From Escherichia phage vB_EcoP_SU10, in the sequence record NC_027395.1: DNA of 64,000 nt; one strand, written 5' to 3'. The notes under the pieces are model-generated. The model saw only the letters and a list, made by a program, of their open reading frames with translations. It did not search any database and was not told where the DNA came from. Made by a program: the position numbers and the translations under genes. Positions 39,483 to 60,897 of this stretch are shown in pieces (within the stretch, counting starts at the first letter, position 1; every line of letters starts with the position of its first letter).

Positions 39483-41327
39483 TTAGTGTGTATGCATCCA
39501 GTTAAGTCCAATCTGACAATCAGATGCCAGAGGACATTCCATGTTCAGATACTCGCCAGCTTTCTTAACACAAAGCTCAGTGTGCTCTTTGAGTTTCTGT
39601 ACATCATTACGGTTTACTGAGAATTGACCTTCATCGTGCATATCAATTACCTTAGCACAACGAACCTTATCTTTCTCAATCCACTTGTTAAGGAACATCA
39701 TAGCATATTTCATAACAACAGCACCAGCACATTGCAGGAGTGTGTTAAGGGCTTTATGAACCATAACCTTACCAGTGGCATCCCGTCTCATTGTAATCTT
39801 ACGACCATCAACTCCAATCAAGTATCCTTGAGCAGCTTTCTCTGTCATACGATCAATGAGGATTGCAATACATGGGTTCTCTGCTAAGAAACGTGCTCGC
39901 ATCACTGAACCTTCGTCAGCCCCACCACCTACAATTGAACCAAGCTTAGCATCGCCAGCACCGTAGTTGAATGCATAGATAAACGTTTTAGCGTTGTCAC
40001 GAGTAGGAAGACCAGCAAGTTTCTGGTTATGGGAGTGGATATCACCTTCAAGGAGAATATCACGATACATAATAGCAGAAGCTAAACCACGTTCTGCCAG
40101 AGCTTTCTTAGCTGGGTTGTTCTCTTCTATTGCCTCAGCAAGCATATCCCTACACTCTTTAATGAGGTAGTGAGCTAGCATACGAAGTTCAAGTCCAGAA
40201 CCATCATACCCTAAGAACACTTCTTTACCAGCGGGTATGTAATATTTGTAAGCACCTATAGGTTTGTCTTTCTTCCCCGGCTTACCTTTCTCGTAAATTA
40301 CGTTAGTACCTTTTCGTATATAACAACCATCAGGAACAACGTTAGTAATAACGAAAGGACGAGAGTGATCACTGTCTGAGTTATAGTCAGACTCAAACAA
40401 ACTGCGACACTCGTGACCAAACAGACCACGGGAGGGAATATTAACCACGATACGATGTTTGAATCGAAAAGTCGGCGTAGCGCAGCTGTTAGCTTCTGCC
40501 GAAAGTTTACCATCTTCGCGTTCCTTTGCTATAAGTCCACTGATAAGACCTAGCCTGTGAGCCGCTACAACGCGTCTCTTAAGCAAACTTCCGACACTCC
40601 CTAGCTCACCCCCTAACCCTTCTTCAAGAGTCTCCTCGAGGTTTGTAGGAGCTGTAGGCCACTTGTTTGATGTGGCTAGTGCTTTCTTAATCTCATCAAA
40701 CGTTACAGGATTACGGCGATTAGGGTTCAACCCCAAACCAAATACGTAAGCCTTCATGTAATTCTTAGTCTTAAACCTGAAATGCTTTTCTAAGAACTTC
40801 TTAATATCAGCGTCAACCATCTCGGCTGTCTGCTTCTGCTTAGCATTGCCTCGCATCCAAGCAGTATACCATGCTTGGTATGTTCCATACTTTCTCATAT
40901 CTTTCTTAATTTCGAAAGTATTCCAAGGCTTCTTAGACACGTTAAACTCTGGAGGAAGAAAGCCCTCATCCATAAGAGCTTCTTTAACTCGTGCATCTTT
41001 CGATGGGTCAAAGTCTACGTATTCAACACAGGTGAAAGCTCCACCAATATCTTCTCTCTTCAGCCCAACCCTATCACAATAGGCTTGAGGCCACTTCTGT
41101 AAAGCTCCAGACTTCTTAAACGGCTTCATGTAAGTAGAGCCGTCTAATCTCATCTTAGGTAAGAGAGGAATCAACTCTCTGTCAATATTAACAATAATCT
41201 CTTTAAGGAGGTGAACATACCACCGAGCATTTCTTCGGTTGAAACTCACTCCGTGCTTTGCTTGCTTAGAGATTATATCAGCGACAGTCATCTCTGTCAA
41301 AAATGGAAGAGCGTCCGGGTTGCTCAC
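39483..41327 (-). CDS. DNA polymerase, family A (polymerase domain only)
   Basis: Motif A LGYDGSGLELR, motif B RDNAKTFIYAFNYGAG, motif C MHDEGQ. Confidence 0.85.
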   Translation of the reverse strand: MSNPDALPFLTEMTVADIISKQAKHGVSFNRRNARWYVHLLKEIIVNIDRELIPLLPKMRLDGSTYMKPFKKSGALQKWPQAYCDRVGLKREDIGGAFTCVEYVDFDPSKDARVKEALMDEGFLPPEFNVSKKPWNTFEIKKDMRKYGTYQAWYTAWMRGNAKQKQTAEMVDADIKKFLEKHFRFKTKNYMKAYVFGLGLNPNRRNPVTFDEIKKALATSNKWPTAPTNLEETLEEGLGGELGSVGSLLKRRVVAAHRLGLISGLIAKEREDGKLSAEANSCATPTFRFKHRIVVNIPSRGLFGHECRSLFESDYNSDSDHSRPFVITNVVPDGCYIRKGTNVIYEKGKPGKKDKPIGAYKYYIPAGKEVFLGYDGSGLELRMLAHYLIKECRDMLAEAIEENNPAKKALAERGLASAIMYRDILLEGDIHSHNQKLAGLPTRDNAKTFIYAFNYGAGDAKLGSIVGGGADEGSVMRARFLAENPCIAILIDRMTEKAAQGYLIGVDGRKITMRRDATGKVMVHKALNTLLQCAGAVVMKYAMMFLNKWIEKDKVRCAKVIDMHDEGQFSVNRNDVQKLKEHTELCVKKAGEYLNMECPLASDCQIGLNWMHTH

Positions 41328-41343
41328 TTTATACTCCTTTAAA

Positions 41344-41757
41344 TTATTGGTAAAGTAAATCTGTAAATGCTTGGTTATCTTCTACTACATCCAATGATGT
41401 GGAATCAACAGCATATGACCTCATTGCTGCATTTGTTTGTGCCCAAGTAGATGGAGAATAAGAAGACCTAATCTCACGAGGCTGCTCTCGTACCAGATGG
41501 GCCACAACCCTCTGATTAGCAACTTCTTCTCTTTCTCTGATAGCTCTCTGAATGTAGGCCAGCTTCATGCCCCAAGCTTCTTCAAACTCTTGAGGGTGTT
41601 TATCACTGATAACCACATATTGACGTTCAGGAATACCAGAGCGAATTTCTGACAATAATTCATGGAACAAATCCAGTTCGTGCTCAGTGAGATTCATTTC
41701 GATATCATCCCACTTGAGAACTAAGAAACGGTTTTGGTGTCTAGCTGGTAATGGCAT
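41344..41757 (-). CDS. Hypothetical protein (137 aa)
   Basis: ORF only. Confidence 0.5.
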   Translation of the reverse strand: MPLPARHQNRFLVLKWDDIEMNLTEHELDLFHELLSEIRSGIPERQYVVISDKHPQEFEEAWGMKLAYIQRAIREREEVANQRVVAHLVREQPREIRSSYSPSTWAQTNAAMRSYAVDSTSLDVVEDNQAFTDLLYQ

Positions 41758-46269: not shown

Positions 46270-46881
46270 TTAGTAAGACACATCACCACTTGAATGGGAC
46301 ATGTTGCTCTTGACGAAGTAGCAATACTTGCCAAGACCTTCATTAATTTCTTGAAGCATACTCTGATCGACAGGGTAAGTGGCTAAATCGCCATCAAACT
46401 CATCCATCTTCTCAATAATACACATCAAGGTCATGCACATATCAGAGAGCATACCGTCCATGTCTAGATCAGCATTACCCTCTGAGAACCAAGCATGAGA
46501 GAGGTAGTTAGCTGCTGTAGCATCCACTTTAACACAGTGATAACGCATACGTTCAGCAATACGATCTCCTACTTGTCGTGCGTAATTTTCCAACTCATCA
46601 AACATACCATGAACACCCTGAAATCCTGCACCAGAGACATTCCAGTGGTAGTTTTTAGCTTTGATATGCAAGAGTTCCATATTAGCTTGTAAGCAGCTCA
46701 GGATGTGTTCTAGGCTGTTTCCGCTAATCATACCCTGCATCGTTTCAAGGCGAGAGATTGAAAGCTCTGACCGATCTAACATATTATAGTCGGCACGACC
46801 AATATCAGGTAAATCAAAGACATTCTTATGCATTTGGGTTTTCTCCATCAAGTTCAACTGAGTTAGCAACGTTACGTGCAA
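46270..46881 (-). CDS. Dps/ferritin-like protein (start probably internal)
   Basis: KNYHWNVSGAGFQGVHGMFDEL...DRIAER matches the Dps HWNV.G..F..VH...D...AER signature. Confidence 0.65.
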   Translation of the reverse strand: MHVTLLTQLNLMEKTQMHKNVFDLPDIGRADYNMLDRSELSISRLETMQGMISGNSLEHILSCLQANMELLHIKAKNYHWNVSGAGFQGVHGMFDELENYARQVGDRIAERMRYHCVKVDATAANYLSHAWFSEGNADLDMDGMLSDMCMTLMCIIEKMDEFDGDLATYPVDQSMLQEINEGLGKYCYFVKSNMSHSSGDVSY

Positions 46882-47227: not shown

Positions 47228-47437
47228 TCAGTAGTAAATTACTTTAGACATAAAAGAACCAGTGTTAGGGTCTTCATACCAGCGATGTATGTCAGCGCTT
47301 TTTACTATTGTGCCCAGAGTCTTCAACTGTTTCTTAGCAATACGAGCCTCTTTGCGAGTGTCAAACAATTTGATGTTATCTTTTCTCATGTGTTGCTCAA
47401 GATCCCAAACAACATGAATAGTCCACATCTTTTTCAT
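47228..47437 (-). CDS. Small protein, tandem paralog 3 of 3 (69 aa)
   Basis: Shares the W.V.V.D...TR..AR..KK...G...SKV.YY pattern; start overlaps upstream stop. Confidence 0.5.
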   Translation of the reverse strand: MKKMWTIHVVWDLEQHMRKDNIKLFDTRKEARIAKKQLKTLGTIVKSADIHRWYEDPNTGSFMSKVIYY

Positions 47438-47646
47438 TAGTAATGTACCTTTCCGCTAATATAAACACGACCAGAGGAATACTCTCTGGCCTTATGAATA
47501 CTGATGCTCTTGATCATATCCATATTAAACATAGATTTTTTAAAATCTCGAGCCTGTTGACGAGTGGGTAGTGCAGTCATAGTCATACCACCTGATGCCC
47601 ACTTAATCTTCGCTAACCAGAACTGTCTCATGGTGATTGGTCTCAT
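47437..47646 (-). CDS. Small protein, tandem paralog 2 of 3 (69 aa)
   Basis: See paralog 3. Confidence 0.5.
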   Translation of the reverse strand: MRPITMRQFWLAKIKWASGGMTMTALPTRQQARDFKKSMFNMDMIKSISIHKAREYSSGRVYISGKVHY

Positions 47647-47843
47647 TAGTAATAAACCTTACTGTTGGCAAGAAAAGCACCTTCGCTATTCACAATAGCT
47701 TTTCCAATAGTGATCTTACCTGACAGACCTATCCCCTTAAAAGTTTTCTTAATTCGACGAGCGTGCTCTCGAGTATTAACAAAATCTACAGAGTTTATGT
47801 CACCTGTCTTGTTGTCATGTACACGAACAATCCACTTTTTCAT
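47646..47843 (-). CDS. Small protein, tandem paralog 1 of 3 (65 aa)
   Basis: See paralog 3. Confidence 0.5.
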   Translation of the reverse strand: MKKWIVRVHDNKTGDINSVDFVNTREHARRIKKTFKGIGLSGKITIGKAIVNSEGAFLANSKVYY

Positions 47844-48046: not shown

Positions 48047-48580
48047 TTACACACCCTTAGATGCAACTACACCTTCAGAGTTATTATAACGACCTTTCAC
48101 TGCATAGGAGTGTTCCCCTGCATGAGAGTGCTCAAACATGACCATCTGACCAACACGCATACCAGCACGAACTCGTAAGCTGTGGTGCTTGGTTACGTTA
48201 TGGAATTCAAATGTCAGCTTACTGCTATTAAATCCTGCATCTGCCCAACCTGCGTGAAGGTGGTTCAAACCACAACGAGCCATAGATGAACGCAGAACAA
48301 ACAGACTTGATATGTTGTCTGGAAGATTAAACTCCTCCATAGAGTGAGCCAAGAAGAACTGACCCGGAGTGATAACCAAACCCTCTTCAGGAATCTTTAC
48401 TTCCTTCCACTGAAGATTCTCTTTCGCATCAATATCAACGATGCCATCAGCCTGTTCTTCAACAAGGATAGTATCACCAATACGGATATCCACACTAGCA
48501 GCGTTAACATACTTATGCTCCGCATCCAGATAGCCATTGTCAATTACATCATGCAGTTCAATACTTCCTAGTAAACTCAT
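48047..48580 (-). CDS. dcd: dCTP deaminase / dUTPase-family protein
   Basis: RSSMARCGL...AGWADAGF...TFEFHN pattern typical of dCTP deaminase family. Confidence 0.8.
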   Translation of the reverse strand: MSLLGSIELHDVIDNGYLDAEHKYVNAASVDIRIGDTILVEEQADGIVDIDAKENLQWKEVKIPEEGLVITPGQFFLAHSMEEFNLPDNISSLFVLRSSMARCGLNHLHAGWADAGFNSSKLTFEFHNVTKHHSLRVRAGMRVGQMVMFEHSHAGEHSYAVKGRYNNSEGVVASKGV

Positions 48581-48589
48581 TCTTATTCC

Positions 48590-49960
48590 TTAGTTATTTG
48601 TTTCTACGTCAAAAGAGATTCCACGACCCGCTTCATCAGCAAACCGAACTGTACGGGTTTGAGGTTCTAATACTTCAGGGTTGTTAGTAATAAAGCGATC
48701 AGCGAGACTGCGGCTGACAGCCTCAGCGAGTTCCTCATGAGAAGGAGTATCAAGATCGGAGAGACTGCCTACCACATCTTGGGCCACACCTTCATCAGTC
48801 CACACAGCCCTAACAGGTGCGTTGATATCACCAACAGCGAAACCCTGACCAGAGAACTGACGTGCACTAACGTTGAAGCCGTTTGGTCTACCACGAGAAG
48901 GACTAGCCATCCATCTCTCCATAGAATCACTTGTAATACCAAGAGCTTCTTCAAAAGATGTTCTACGAGTAGGGCTTACTCTTCGTGACTCTTGTGCTCG
49001 ACGCATTGCAGGGGCTACAAACACCCCTTCAATTGCATTGTGTCGGTTAGGTTCCTCTTCTCGACCAAGCAGATCACCACCCGTGTTAGTCGTTAAATTT
49101 GTCAACCCCTCAGACCAATACGCATGAATCTGACCAGAACCGTGAAGACTAGACATAATCTGAATCTCTTCATAAGGGATTCCAAAGAATCGACTCATGT
49201 CTCGGTTGACACAATATAGAGCACTTGTTGTATCTTCAATAAGAGAAACCTGACCTAATCCATTGACTAGATGACTAACTGGCTGAGGTGTGGGAAGATA
49301 TCGAGTTTGGGCCATGTATTGATGTGCAACTGCTGGAGAGGAAAATCTCAACACTTGTGAGTTAGGCCACTTCTTGTGAACATACCTGATTTCACGACTA
49401 GAGACAACCACTGGACAAGGGGAAGTCATAGCCAAATATCCGTGAGAAGTCATGAATAAGTTGTCAAGAGTCATCGCACCACGGCACATCATAGGAAAAT
49501 TATCCAATACCTCTTCAATAGAAGTAGGATAATTAAACATGAATTGGATACGAACCCCATTCCACTGAAACTCAATAATATCAGTGAATGTTAATTGAGA
49601 ACCCCCAGCATAGGATTCGTTTGTAGCTTCAGCAAGAAGTGATGCATATTCAATATCTTGTGACTCTAGCCATTCCTTCACATTACTTTCAATCTCCCGT
49701 CCAAGCTCTTGCCAACGATCAGTTGGGATGAAAGTGTTTTGAGTTCTTGGTGTTTGTCCTCTGACAATAAAGATATCAATGTCATGTGGAGCTATGTTAT
49801 TAAGGACAGCATCACGAACAGCCCCACCAGTAATGATGGGACAGATACCATCTGGAATCAAGTTGTTGTTAATCAACTGTTCAATGAAGTGACGACCAAC
49901 AGTGATATCAGGTTGTTGAGCAACCTTATCTTCAATTTGGTTAATCGGGATAACAATCAT
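48590..49960 (-). CDS. Nucleotidyltransferase of CCA-adding/poly(A) polymerase type (start at MIVIPINQ)
   Basis: N-terminal ITGGAVRDAVLNNIAPHDIDIFIV (GGxVRD...DxD head-domain signature). Confidence 0.65.
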   Translation of the reverse strand: MIVIPINQIEDKVAQQPDITVGRHFIEQLINNNLIPDGICPIITGGAVRDAVLNNIAPHDIDIFIVRGQTPRTQNTFIPTDRWQELGREIESNVKEWLESQDIEYASLLAEATNESYAGGSQLTFTDIIEFQWNGVRIQFMFNYPTSIEEVLDNFPMMCRGAMTLDNLFMTSHGYLAMTSPCPVVVSSREIRYVHKKWPNSQVLRFSSPAVAHQYMAQTRYLPTPQPVSHLVNGLGQVSLIEDTTSALYCVNRDMSRFFGIPYEEIQIMSSLHGSGQIHAYWSEGLTNLTTNTGGDLLGREEEPNRHNAIEGVFVAPAMRRAQESRRVSPTRRTSFEEALGITSDSMERWMASPSRGRPNGFNVSARQFSGQGFAVGDINAPVRAVWTDEGVAQDVVGSLSDLDTPSHEELAEAVSRSLADRFITNNPEVLEPQTRTVRFADEAGRGISFDVETNN

Positions 49961-59933: not shown

Positions 59934-60897
59934 TGTAATACTCCACTAGTTCAGAAAAGAGAGATGAGATTGTGTTACCAACTTCTTCAAGAGTAAGACC
60001 GGAATCTGCTCCAGTTCTTTGAATCAGTCGGGCTGTAAAGTTTTGTACTGTAATGTTTCCCAACTTGTCGTCTATTGCTTCACGTTTGTGACCATAACAG
60101 TTGGACCAGAGTCTTAACCACTCTGACATTGTTTCATACTCGTCCGGGTCTTGATCTTTAGCACGAGCAAATCTTCGTAAGGCACCTTGGTTATGGTTAC
60201 GAACATAACCATTCTCGTTGTCGCCAACACCGAAGGGGTTTTGAACCCATACTTGCTTCGTGTATTCATCAGAGTCTACAACCAAAGGAAGGAATGCTGC
60301 TGCTGACATATTGTTGTTAATAACAATAGAGGTGCTCTCACTACTCCCATTGGCTCTTCCTCGTTGAGACCATCCACCGAAGAAGTCACGACCCAACCCA
60401 GCTAACACTAGAGCGATTCCGATGCGTTTACGCTTCAGCCACTCTTCCCTGTCTTCAATTCCTTCTGCTAGGAAATCCATTCCACGATATTGCCCTTCCA
60501 GAATACTACGAAAGAGCATAAGTCCTGTGAAGATCTGATCTGCTGGATGCTCACGAAGGTTGACAGCAACACTATTCGCTGAAGTGATCGTAAATACGTC
60601 ACGATAGCAAGACATGGAGTTCATAATGTCTGCTGTTTCAACCAAGTTCTTTTCAATATCAGATGCAACATGACCATGAAAAGAGTGAGTCCAGTAATTC
60701 AACATCTCCAGTTGCAAGTTGATATCACGGTTGAAGCGACGATAGCGCCCCTCTTCCGTGATAACTTCACCATTAATGTCATTTACACACTGGCCTTGCA
60801 TGTAGTTGTGGATACCGAAGCACCCACGACCTAAGAACTTCTGTTCCCCTAAATCCTGTTGAAGATTAAGAGGTACGATCGTTGTGGAGATTGACAT
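59926..60897 (-). CDS. Hypothetical protein (323 aa) in ligase cluster
   Basis: Overlaps neighbours; no motif recognised. Confidence 0.5.
   Translation of the reverse strand: MSISTTIVPLNLQQDLGEQKFLGRGCFGIHNYMQGQCVNDINGEVITEEGRYRRFNRDINLQLEMLNYWTHSFHGHVASDIEKNLVETADIMNSMSCYRDVFTITSANSVAVNLREHPADQIFTGLMLFRSILEGQYRGMDFLAEGIEDREEWLKRKRIGIALVLAGLGRDFFGGWSQRGRANGSSESTSIVINNNMSAAAFLPLVVDSDEYTKQVWVQNPFGVGDNENGYVRNHNQGALRRFARAKDQDPDEYETMSEWLRLWSNCYGHKREAIDDKLGNITVQNFTARLIQRTGADSGLTLEEVGNTISSLFSELVEYYND

Follow-up and report, generated by a model that had tools for sequence, protein, structure and literature searches.

Gad2 is a 400-residue anti-Gabija protein of Bacillus phage SPbetaL7 (ORF_159) and a predicted nucleotidyltransferase (NTase). 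Its gene lies in a variable anti-defence locus, deletion of gad2 sensitizes SPbetaL7 to Gabija, and a homologue alone suffices to block this system (bioRxiv 10.1101/2023.05.01.538930). Smaller proteins of this kind occur in podoviruses; the homologue in Emajogi adjoins primase/helicase, is toxic on overexpression, and has relatives some of which are annotated as Gad2 family (bioRxiv 10.64898/2026.09.15.751885). Here we describe an NTase encoded by Escherichia phage vB_EcoP_SU10, in a stretch of 64,000 nucleotides from sequence record NC_027395.1 (the window). The gene occupies 48590..49960 on the minus strand, encodes 456 residues and a stop codon, and is the orthologue of phiEco32 gp73 (phi32_73). 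Its product is a divergent, lineage-restricted, lysine-depleted and tailed branch of the Gad2-like minimal NTases that has become fixed in a replication operon.

Hundreds of podoviruses, phiKMV-like and gh-1-like phages included, carry unexplained small NTases, related to this protein and to Gad2, in their replication modules. The phage itself is phiEco32-like and belongs to the genus Kuravirus, subfamily Gordonclarkvirinae, a group of therapeutically used coliphages whose restriction resistance is likewise unexplained. Because the Gordonclarkvirinae resist restriction-modification systems, the BASEL authors proposed a role in DNA modification, and the NTase and the adjacent dCTP deaminase are the only two candidate genes that they named (PMC11990801).

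Results

The gene and its family

The open reading frame begins with ATG at 49960 and ends with a stop codon at 48590-48592. A GTG-extended version, which would reach up to 50017, overlaps the upstream gene, and annotated homologues start elsewhere. The protein is 97% identical in amino acid sequence to the 'nucleotidyltransferase' of Bas91 and that of CHD5UKE1 and 85% identical to phiEco32 gp73, and its match to phrog_12715 (E 9e-265) is full-length. At the DNA level, 98 phage records, nearly all of them from Escherichia, match 4 kb around the gene at 90-97% identity. The gene is real, and a public annotation for it already exists, though only the generic one.

A word-indexed homologue search with the single protein returned only relatives of at least 79% identity; a query with an alignment and an exhaustive profile search reached further. 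Among 1.84 billion representatives, the profile search placed only 31 clusters in the family at E <1e-10. The family is very small and lineage-restricted. In a search of NCBIfam, the protein matched no family and neither a CCA nor a PcnB model.

The enzyme domain and its active site

AlphaFold2, run with 26 family sequences, gives a confident model of residues 1-282, where the block predicted local distance difference test score (pLDDT) is mostly 75-93; for residues 283-456 the pLDDT falls below 50. In the model, the folded part starts with a helical segment at the N terminus. A head of the Pol-beta type follows, with strands at residues 39-44, 61-67, 125-133 and 136-146, and behind the head lies a small helical subdomain (residues 147-282; 49115..49522, minus strand), in which model confidence is lower at residues 220-250.

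Conservation was counted in an alignment of the 26 family members, some of which are as little as 19% identical. Motif A, ITGGAVRDAVLNNIAPHDIDIF, is encoded exactly at 49769-49834 (minus strand) and contains the G45-G46 turn for binding of a nucleoside triphosphate (NTP), R49, D50 and the metal carboxylates D60 and D62, each of which is invariant (26/26). A single match to the pattern GG.[VI]RD.{5,12}D[IVLMF]D is present when the window is translated in all six frames, and 300 second-order Markov simulations of the window produced none. Also invariant are F64, Y117, I128, Q139, P156, Y193 and K197, and positions 127 and 190 are D or E in every member. Two beta strands, FTDIIEFQWNGVRIQFM (49538..49588, minus strand), carry Q139 and the candidate third carboxylate, D127, whose conservation and modeled strand position make it the likely third metal ligand. 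E130, the obvious choice for this role by eye, was rejected because the position varies (E/S/D/Q/N); D127 fits.

Two further segments were located by alignment. The first, LDNFPMMCRGAMTL (49466..49507, minus strand), lies where Gad2 and the small phage NTases have F-D-x-x-x-C and class II enzymes have motif B (RRDFTINA); here the invariant P156 stands at the expected Asp position. The second, REIRYVHKKWP (49364..49396, minus strand), comprises R189, the D/E at position 190, Y193 and K197, and is the counterpart of R..K[FY] in small NTases and Gad2. With the hG[GS] turn and three candidate carboxylates of the Pol-beta superfamily in place, as judged from conservation and the modeled strand layout, the Pol-beta active site appears to be intact and the enzyme is probably active.

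A preliminary description of this gene, made by a model from the DNA letters, had pointed to a Pol-beta head signature of class II tRNA nucleotidyltransferases in the segment that we call motif A, which is right at the level of the fold. It had also suggested looking for the catalytic carboxylates on alignment, and they are there, D60 and D62 in 26/26 members and D or E at position 127. Where it saw about 350 residues devoid of motifs, however, some 220 belong to the conserved fold and include the invariant Y117, Q139, P156, Y193 and K197. The long unique C-terminal region that it described is real for the last 174 residues (283-456) and does not have the claimed length of about 350.

Homology to Gad2 and the small podovirus enzymes

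Precomputed matches to the Gad2 family (PF26128) are found on many Kuravirus orthologues but are graded weak, and several of the closest orthologues carry none; the exact protein of the window has no record of its own. Beneath the NTase family, the profile search revealed a fringe of proteins of about 200 residues at E 1e-7 to 1e-3, of which P0111 and P0115 have PF26128 matches that bear no weak mark. Alignment of the family with these fringe proteins by hhalign gave a probability of 99.4% (E 1.2e-21, residues 37-221), a comparison that is partly circular because the fringe proteins were picked by their similarity to the family. An independent profile-profile comparison joined the fringe proteins to bona fide Gad2 with a probability of 98.6% (E 7.9e-16, 134 aligned columns), and a direct comparison of the NTase family with Gad2 gave 61% (E 8e-5, 112 aligned columns). 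For these comparisons the Gad2 sequence was taken from the supplement of the original report (bioRxiv 10.1101/2023.05.01.538930), and the collected homologues all carry PF26128. On the strength of these profiles, the NTase domain is homologous to validated Gad2, distantly and by a transitive link via intermediates. In the NTase, the small enzymes and Gad2 alike, the GG turn comes first and is followed by DxD, the strand with Q, F-[D/P]-x-x-x-C and finally R..K[FY].

The small podovirus enzymes are nearer. Their PHROG, phrog_1614, matches the NTase at E 1.7e-7, and the nearest predicted viral structures outside the family in BFVD are Autographiviridae NTases of 167-215 residues, with target-normalized template modeling scores (TM-scores) of 0.45-0.66. 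Relatives were found in 225 phage records, mostly of phiKMV-like and gh-1-like phages, and the LKD16 homologue is placed between helicase and ligase. On the metagenomic contig that encodes P0111 (L014, 1-6651), the small Gad2-family NTase sits beside NAMPT, a NUDIX/NMNAT-like gene and an Rnl2 RNA ligase. This neighborhood is unlike the podovirus replication modules, so members of the clade may serve more than one role.

Divergence from class II CCA-adding enzymes

In class II enzymes, motif B consists of RRD, which serves ribose recognition, directly before F-T-I-N-A, and motif D is the base-templating EDxxR. The class II motif A (GGxVRD, then DxD) is present in the NTase and aligns to motif A of solved CCA enzymes. 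When the family profile was run against the PDB, however, these enzymes were matched over motif A only and with a non-significant E of about 0.3, and a single-sequence phmmer search of the PDB returned nothing relevant. The Pfam family PolyA_pol (PF01743) scores 18.9 bits on the NTase, below its gathering threshold of 23 bits, with 20.1-20.9 bits for orthologues and 13.5 or nothing for other genera.

The remaining class II elements diverge further. The motif B counterpart, LDNFPMMCRG, has N-F-P for RRD and is devoid of Arg-Arg-Asp; the NTase has no EDxxR motif and none of the neck, body and tail domains with which class II enzymes bind tRNA or RNA; and superposition on class II structures covers 150-170 residues only. 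There are no tRNA genes within the 64-kb window. The preliminary description had listed tRNA 3'-end repair, RNA tailing and nucleotide-signal synthesis as possible activities, and the replaced motif B, the missing EDxxR and tRNA-binding domains and the sub-threshold PolyA_pol score lend CCA repair no support. Since the class II elements for C/A selection and for measuring tRNA are missing, the sequence argues against CCA addition, and we do not class the NTase with the CCA-adding enzymes or the poly(A) polymerases. With the RRD ribose sensor gone, the sugar of the nucleotide used may be ribose or deoxyribose.

A predicted disordered tail under purifying selection

Residues 283-456 (174 residues; 48593..49114, minus strand) are predicted to be disordered on the basis of pLDDT. 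This tail contains no lysine, tyrosine or cysteine but has 18 arginines and 27 acidic residues (D+E). Among Kuravirus isolates, tails differ by block deletions of about 19-24 residues, and both tail ends are conserved. The ratio of nonsynonymous to synonymous divergence in Kuravirus comparisons is 0.22-0.57 for the tail and 0.08-0.17 for the enzyme domain. The tail is under purifying selection. Across genera no similarity of the tail is detectable, the tails of the sister genera differing in both length and sequence, and in more distant relatives of 278-321 residues the tail is absent. Purifying selection within the genus, together with this absence, indicates that the tail is functional in Kuravirus yet dispensable for the core activity.

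Inspection of the tail by eye found no motif of the clamp-binding type or of the type found in the tail of single-stranded DNA-binding protein; all that it picked out were hydrophobic C-termini and an R-R-x-S-[FWM] segment that recurs. Synonymous divergence among six Kuravirus genes is lower in the tail than in the enzyme domain in 14 of 15 pairs, typically about half, the exception being the near-identical pair of the window and Bas91. Possible causes of the lower divergence are recombination, an overlapping gene and an element in the RNA or DNA. An antisense frame across the tail region is open for 74-84 codons in all six phages.

Depletion of lysine

The NTase has only 4 lysines in 456 residues (0.9%), and its arginine content is 7%. 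The median over 60 open reading frames of the window is 6.5% lysine, and the NTase ties for the lowest content in the window, although the genome is AT-rich and lysine codons should be cheap. Lysine content across the NTase family is 0.4-3.1%, compared with 3-7% in the small Gad2-type NTases and 10-11% in Gad2. Of the lysines retained, K197 is invariant, and at position 196, 19 of the 26 members have K and another 4 have R. Avoidance of lysine-directed modification is one possible explanation of the depletion.

Other non-structural proteins of the window are also lysine-poor (2.0-2.5% K, 7-9% R), namely those encoded at 53644-54846, 57400-58503, 59926-60897 and 41344-41757, all on the minus strand. 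This set includes the RimK-like ATP-grasp and Amidoligase_2 proteins of a cluster upstream. A selective cause shared by the NTase and these lysine-poor proteins is possible.

Genomic context

The NTase gene is the third of a block of four genes on the minus strand. A T7 gp4-like primase/helicase (50513..52303; DnaB_C and Toprim matches) comes first, followed by a PolA 3'-5' exonuclease subunit (49962..50519; PF01612, E 1.3e-8; phrog_38876 and phrog_403), the NTase and a dCTP deaminase (48047..48580; PF22769, E 3.6e-34). A single base separates the exonuclease stop codon from the NTase start codon (...TGG AAA ATG TAA A ATG...), and the deaminase starts 9 bases past the NTase stop codon. This head-to-tail packing in one orientation is consistent with co-transcription of a replication block. 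Every relative with available flanks keeps the order of the four genes, in each of the three named genera and in metagenomic relatives whose identity is as low as about 25%.

A separate PolA polymerase gene lies at 39483-41291 (minus strand), and with it the idea that the NTase could be the missing DNA polymerase of the phage was rejected. The phage encodes its family A DNA polymerase in two pieces, a 3'-5' exonuclease subunit that stands alone and a protein with only the polymerase part, with genes about 8.7 kb apart.

Directly upstream of the replication block, at 52523-60897 (minus strand), lies a conserved cluster that encodes a GGACT-like cyclotransferase, a RimK-like ATP-grasp protein, a GATase, an Amidoligase_2 protein and a COOH-NH2 ligase. 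This amidoligase/ATP-grasp cluster is present in all relatives examined, distant metagenomic ones included. On the other side, a nucleotide-metabolism operon contains a ferritin/Dps-like protein (46270-46848, minus strand; PF00210, E 5e-7) beside thioredoxin and ThyX, and the ferritin/Dps-like gene is kept in relatives whose contigs reach that far. Three abutting tandem paralogous reading frames (47228-47437, 47437-47646 and 47646-47843, minus strand) encode proteins of 65-69 residues with an identity of about 25%, a common T-R..A-R..K-K pattern and [VI]-[YH]-Y as their last residues; their conserved phiEco32 counterparts are gp69-71.

Discussion

A proposed Gad2-like enzyme of nucleic-acid ends

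We tentatively propose, by analogy with Gad2 and from the sequence and the model, that the NTase is a template-independent, Gad2-like enzyme whose targets are the ends of nucleic acids and whose role, linked to replication, is counter-defence or the maintenance of those ends, with its tail as a docking arm; we regard this as the most plausible account, though short of probable. Residues 1-282 would form a minimal class-II-type enzyme of the Pol-beta superfamily, predicted to be catalytically competent. The G45-G46 turn, R49 and K197 are expected to hold the incoming NTP or deoxy-NTP, and D60, D62 and D127 would bind two metal ions and catalyze attack by an acceptor hydroxyl. The acceptor is most likely the 3'-OH of a nucleic-acid end, to which a nucleoside or deoxynucleoside monophosphate would be transferred in the absence of a template. 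The enzyme would be co-expressed with the replication genes. By analogy with Gad2 and the DNA-end-directed Gabija, the ends modified may be those of phage DNA, and less likely those of RNA. The lysine-free disordered tail (283-456) could serve as a flexible arm that docks onto a partner protein. What the analysis establishes is the fold, the conserved catalytic residues, the chain of homology, the synteny, the predicted disorder and the purifying selection on the tail; which acceptor and which nucleotide are used, the role against defence and the partner of the tail are inferred.

Current thinking places the action of Gabija at DNA ends without RecBCD activity (PMC12904381). We favor an end-directed role in counter-defence or maintenance because Gad2 counters Gabija, Gabija would act at DNA ends, and the small relatives of the NTase lie among helicase, ligase and polymerase genes. 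Several points weigh against this proposal. The mechanism of Gad2 was listed as unknown in February 2026 (PMC12904381), so that the analogy carries a phenotype and not a mechanism. The direct profile match between the NTase and Gad2 is weak, the strong link being made via intermediates that were selected by similarity to the family, and the C-terminal domain of Gad2 (about residues 200-400) has no counterpart in the phage enzyme. Anti-defence genes are usually accessory and variable, whereas this NTase is a fixed core gene. The closest solved structures all act on RNA 3' ends, not on DNA, and a literature search for Kuravirus and Gabija found nothing on the Gabija sensitivity of Gordonclarkvirinae.

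It is also conceivable, though decidedly doubtful, that the NTase is a terminal transferase tethered to the replisome by its tail. Such an enzyme would extend the termini of the linear, terminally redundant genome, or replication intermediates, by untemplated nucleotides and so deny access to end-sensing host systems, RecBCD and Gabija-like OLD nucleases among them. Lysine depletion would shield it from a lysine-directed modification that comes from host immunity or from the amidoligase/ATP-grasp/GGACT cluster of the phage itself. If this were true, a tethered terminal transferase would add to the unusually broad defence resistance of the Gordonclarkvirinae and reveal the mechanism of Gad2.

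Alternative roles

The fold neighbors of the NTase would also suit an enzyme of RNA 3' ends, that is, a minimal tRNA NTase or poly(A)-type polymerase that repairs nuclease-trimmed tRNA or tails host RNAs, directing them to decay and releasing nucleotides for phage DNA. We consider this unlikely, given a PolyA_pol score below the cut-off, a replaced motif B, the lack of EDxxR and of an RNA-binding domain, structural alignment over just 150-170 residues, a window with no tRNA genes and a context of DNA-replication genes in every relative. An enzyme working at the level of nucleotides, which would make or destroy a small nucleotide (a signal or a decoy) or nucleotidylate a small molecule or protein, is less likely still. 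Structural matches to CD-NTases and OAS-type enzymes are clearly weaker than those to class II, and no second lobe of the cGAS/DncV type or acceptor pocket is recognizable, PADLOC and defence-signaling libraries having been outside the search. That the NTase fold might instead be a non-catalytic replisome accessory, a scaffold whose tail bridges the separate exonuclease and polymerase subunits, is suggested by the exonuclease gene one base away, the split PolA and a long tail conserved at both ends. It is nevertheless hard to credit: the residues that bind NTP and metal are invariant family-wide, as would not be expected of a pseudoenzyme, the relatives of 278-321 residues are tail-less, and phiKMV-like phages with an unsplit polymerase also carry a small NTase.

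The role in DNA modification proposed by the BASEL authors would have the NTase and the adjacent dCTP deaminase build a non-canonical or modified base that renders Gordonclarkvirinae DNA resistant to restriction. The adjacency of the two genes is invariant, and the window keeps 13 EcoRI, 36 EcoRV, 11 EcoKI and 101 EcoP1 sites. As these sites are retained, their loss was rejected as the cause of restriction-modification resistance for these enzymes. We nonetheless regard this role as improbable. ThyX, a thymidylate synthase, is encoded near the block, which argues for an ordinary function of the deaminase in dTTP supply and makes DNA containing deoxyuridine unlikely. Many palindromes are strongly avoided: where about 100 copies of CCWGG are expected there are 5, and 15 of the 64 hexamer palindromes do not occur at all. 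Such avoidance implies that the phage DNA has been exposed to restriction. Across the whole window (1-64000), GATC occurs 134 times against about 293 expected, and the PstI, SacI and BamHI sites are among the absent hexamers. Homologous small NTases also occur in phiKMV-like phages that have no dCTP deaminase, and we know of no base-hypermodification pathway that uses an NTase of the Pol-beta fold.

The NTase is fixed, single-copy and, by prediction, probably active in phages that grow on E. coli K-12 (Bas86-93). Because isolates that infect K-12 carry a fixed single-copy gene, it offers a tractable entry point to this clade of enzymes and to the open mechanism of Gad2.

Comparison with known systems

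With class II tRNA nucleotidyltransferases and bacterial poly(A) polymerase I (e.g. 1miv, 3aql and 3h37) the NTase has the head in common. Those enzymes carry in addition motifs B and D and the body and tail domains that bind RNA, all of which the NTase lacks. Minimal NTase toxins of the MenT/AbiEii type likewise have a small Pol-beta fold and no accessory RNA-binding domains, and the toxicity on overexpression reported for relatives of the phage NTase is a further likeness to them.

Gad2 differs from the phage enzyme in several respects. Its turn reads AGGAITS, where the NTase reads GGAVRD, and at the F-D-x-x-x-C site it has FNTFDFTVCMGA, that is, F-D-F-T-V-C with the Asp kept, in place of the invariant Pro of the NTase family. 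Past the NTase domain, within which the hhalign alignment stops, Gad2 continues for about another 200 residues (about residues 200-400), to which the predicted disordered tail of the NTase is unrelated. Its locus is variable, whereas the phage NTase is fixed in the replication operon.

The strongest remote homology is to the small podovirus NTases of about 170-290 residues (phiKMV and LKD16 ORF16, gh-1, Emajogi gp22; PHROG 1614). These have no disordered tail, keep the Asp of F-D-x-x-x-C/N and are not linked to a split exonuclease subunit or a dCTP deaminase. They nevertheless share GGAVRD...DxD with the phage NTase, and they adjoin helicase, primase or ligase genes.

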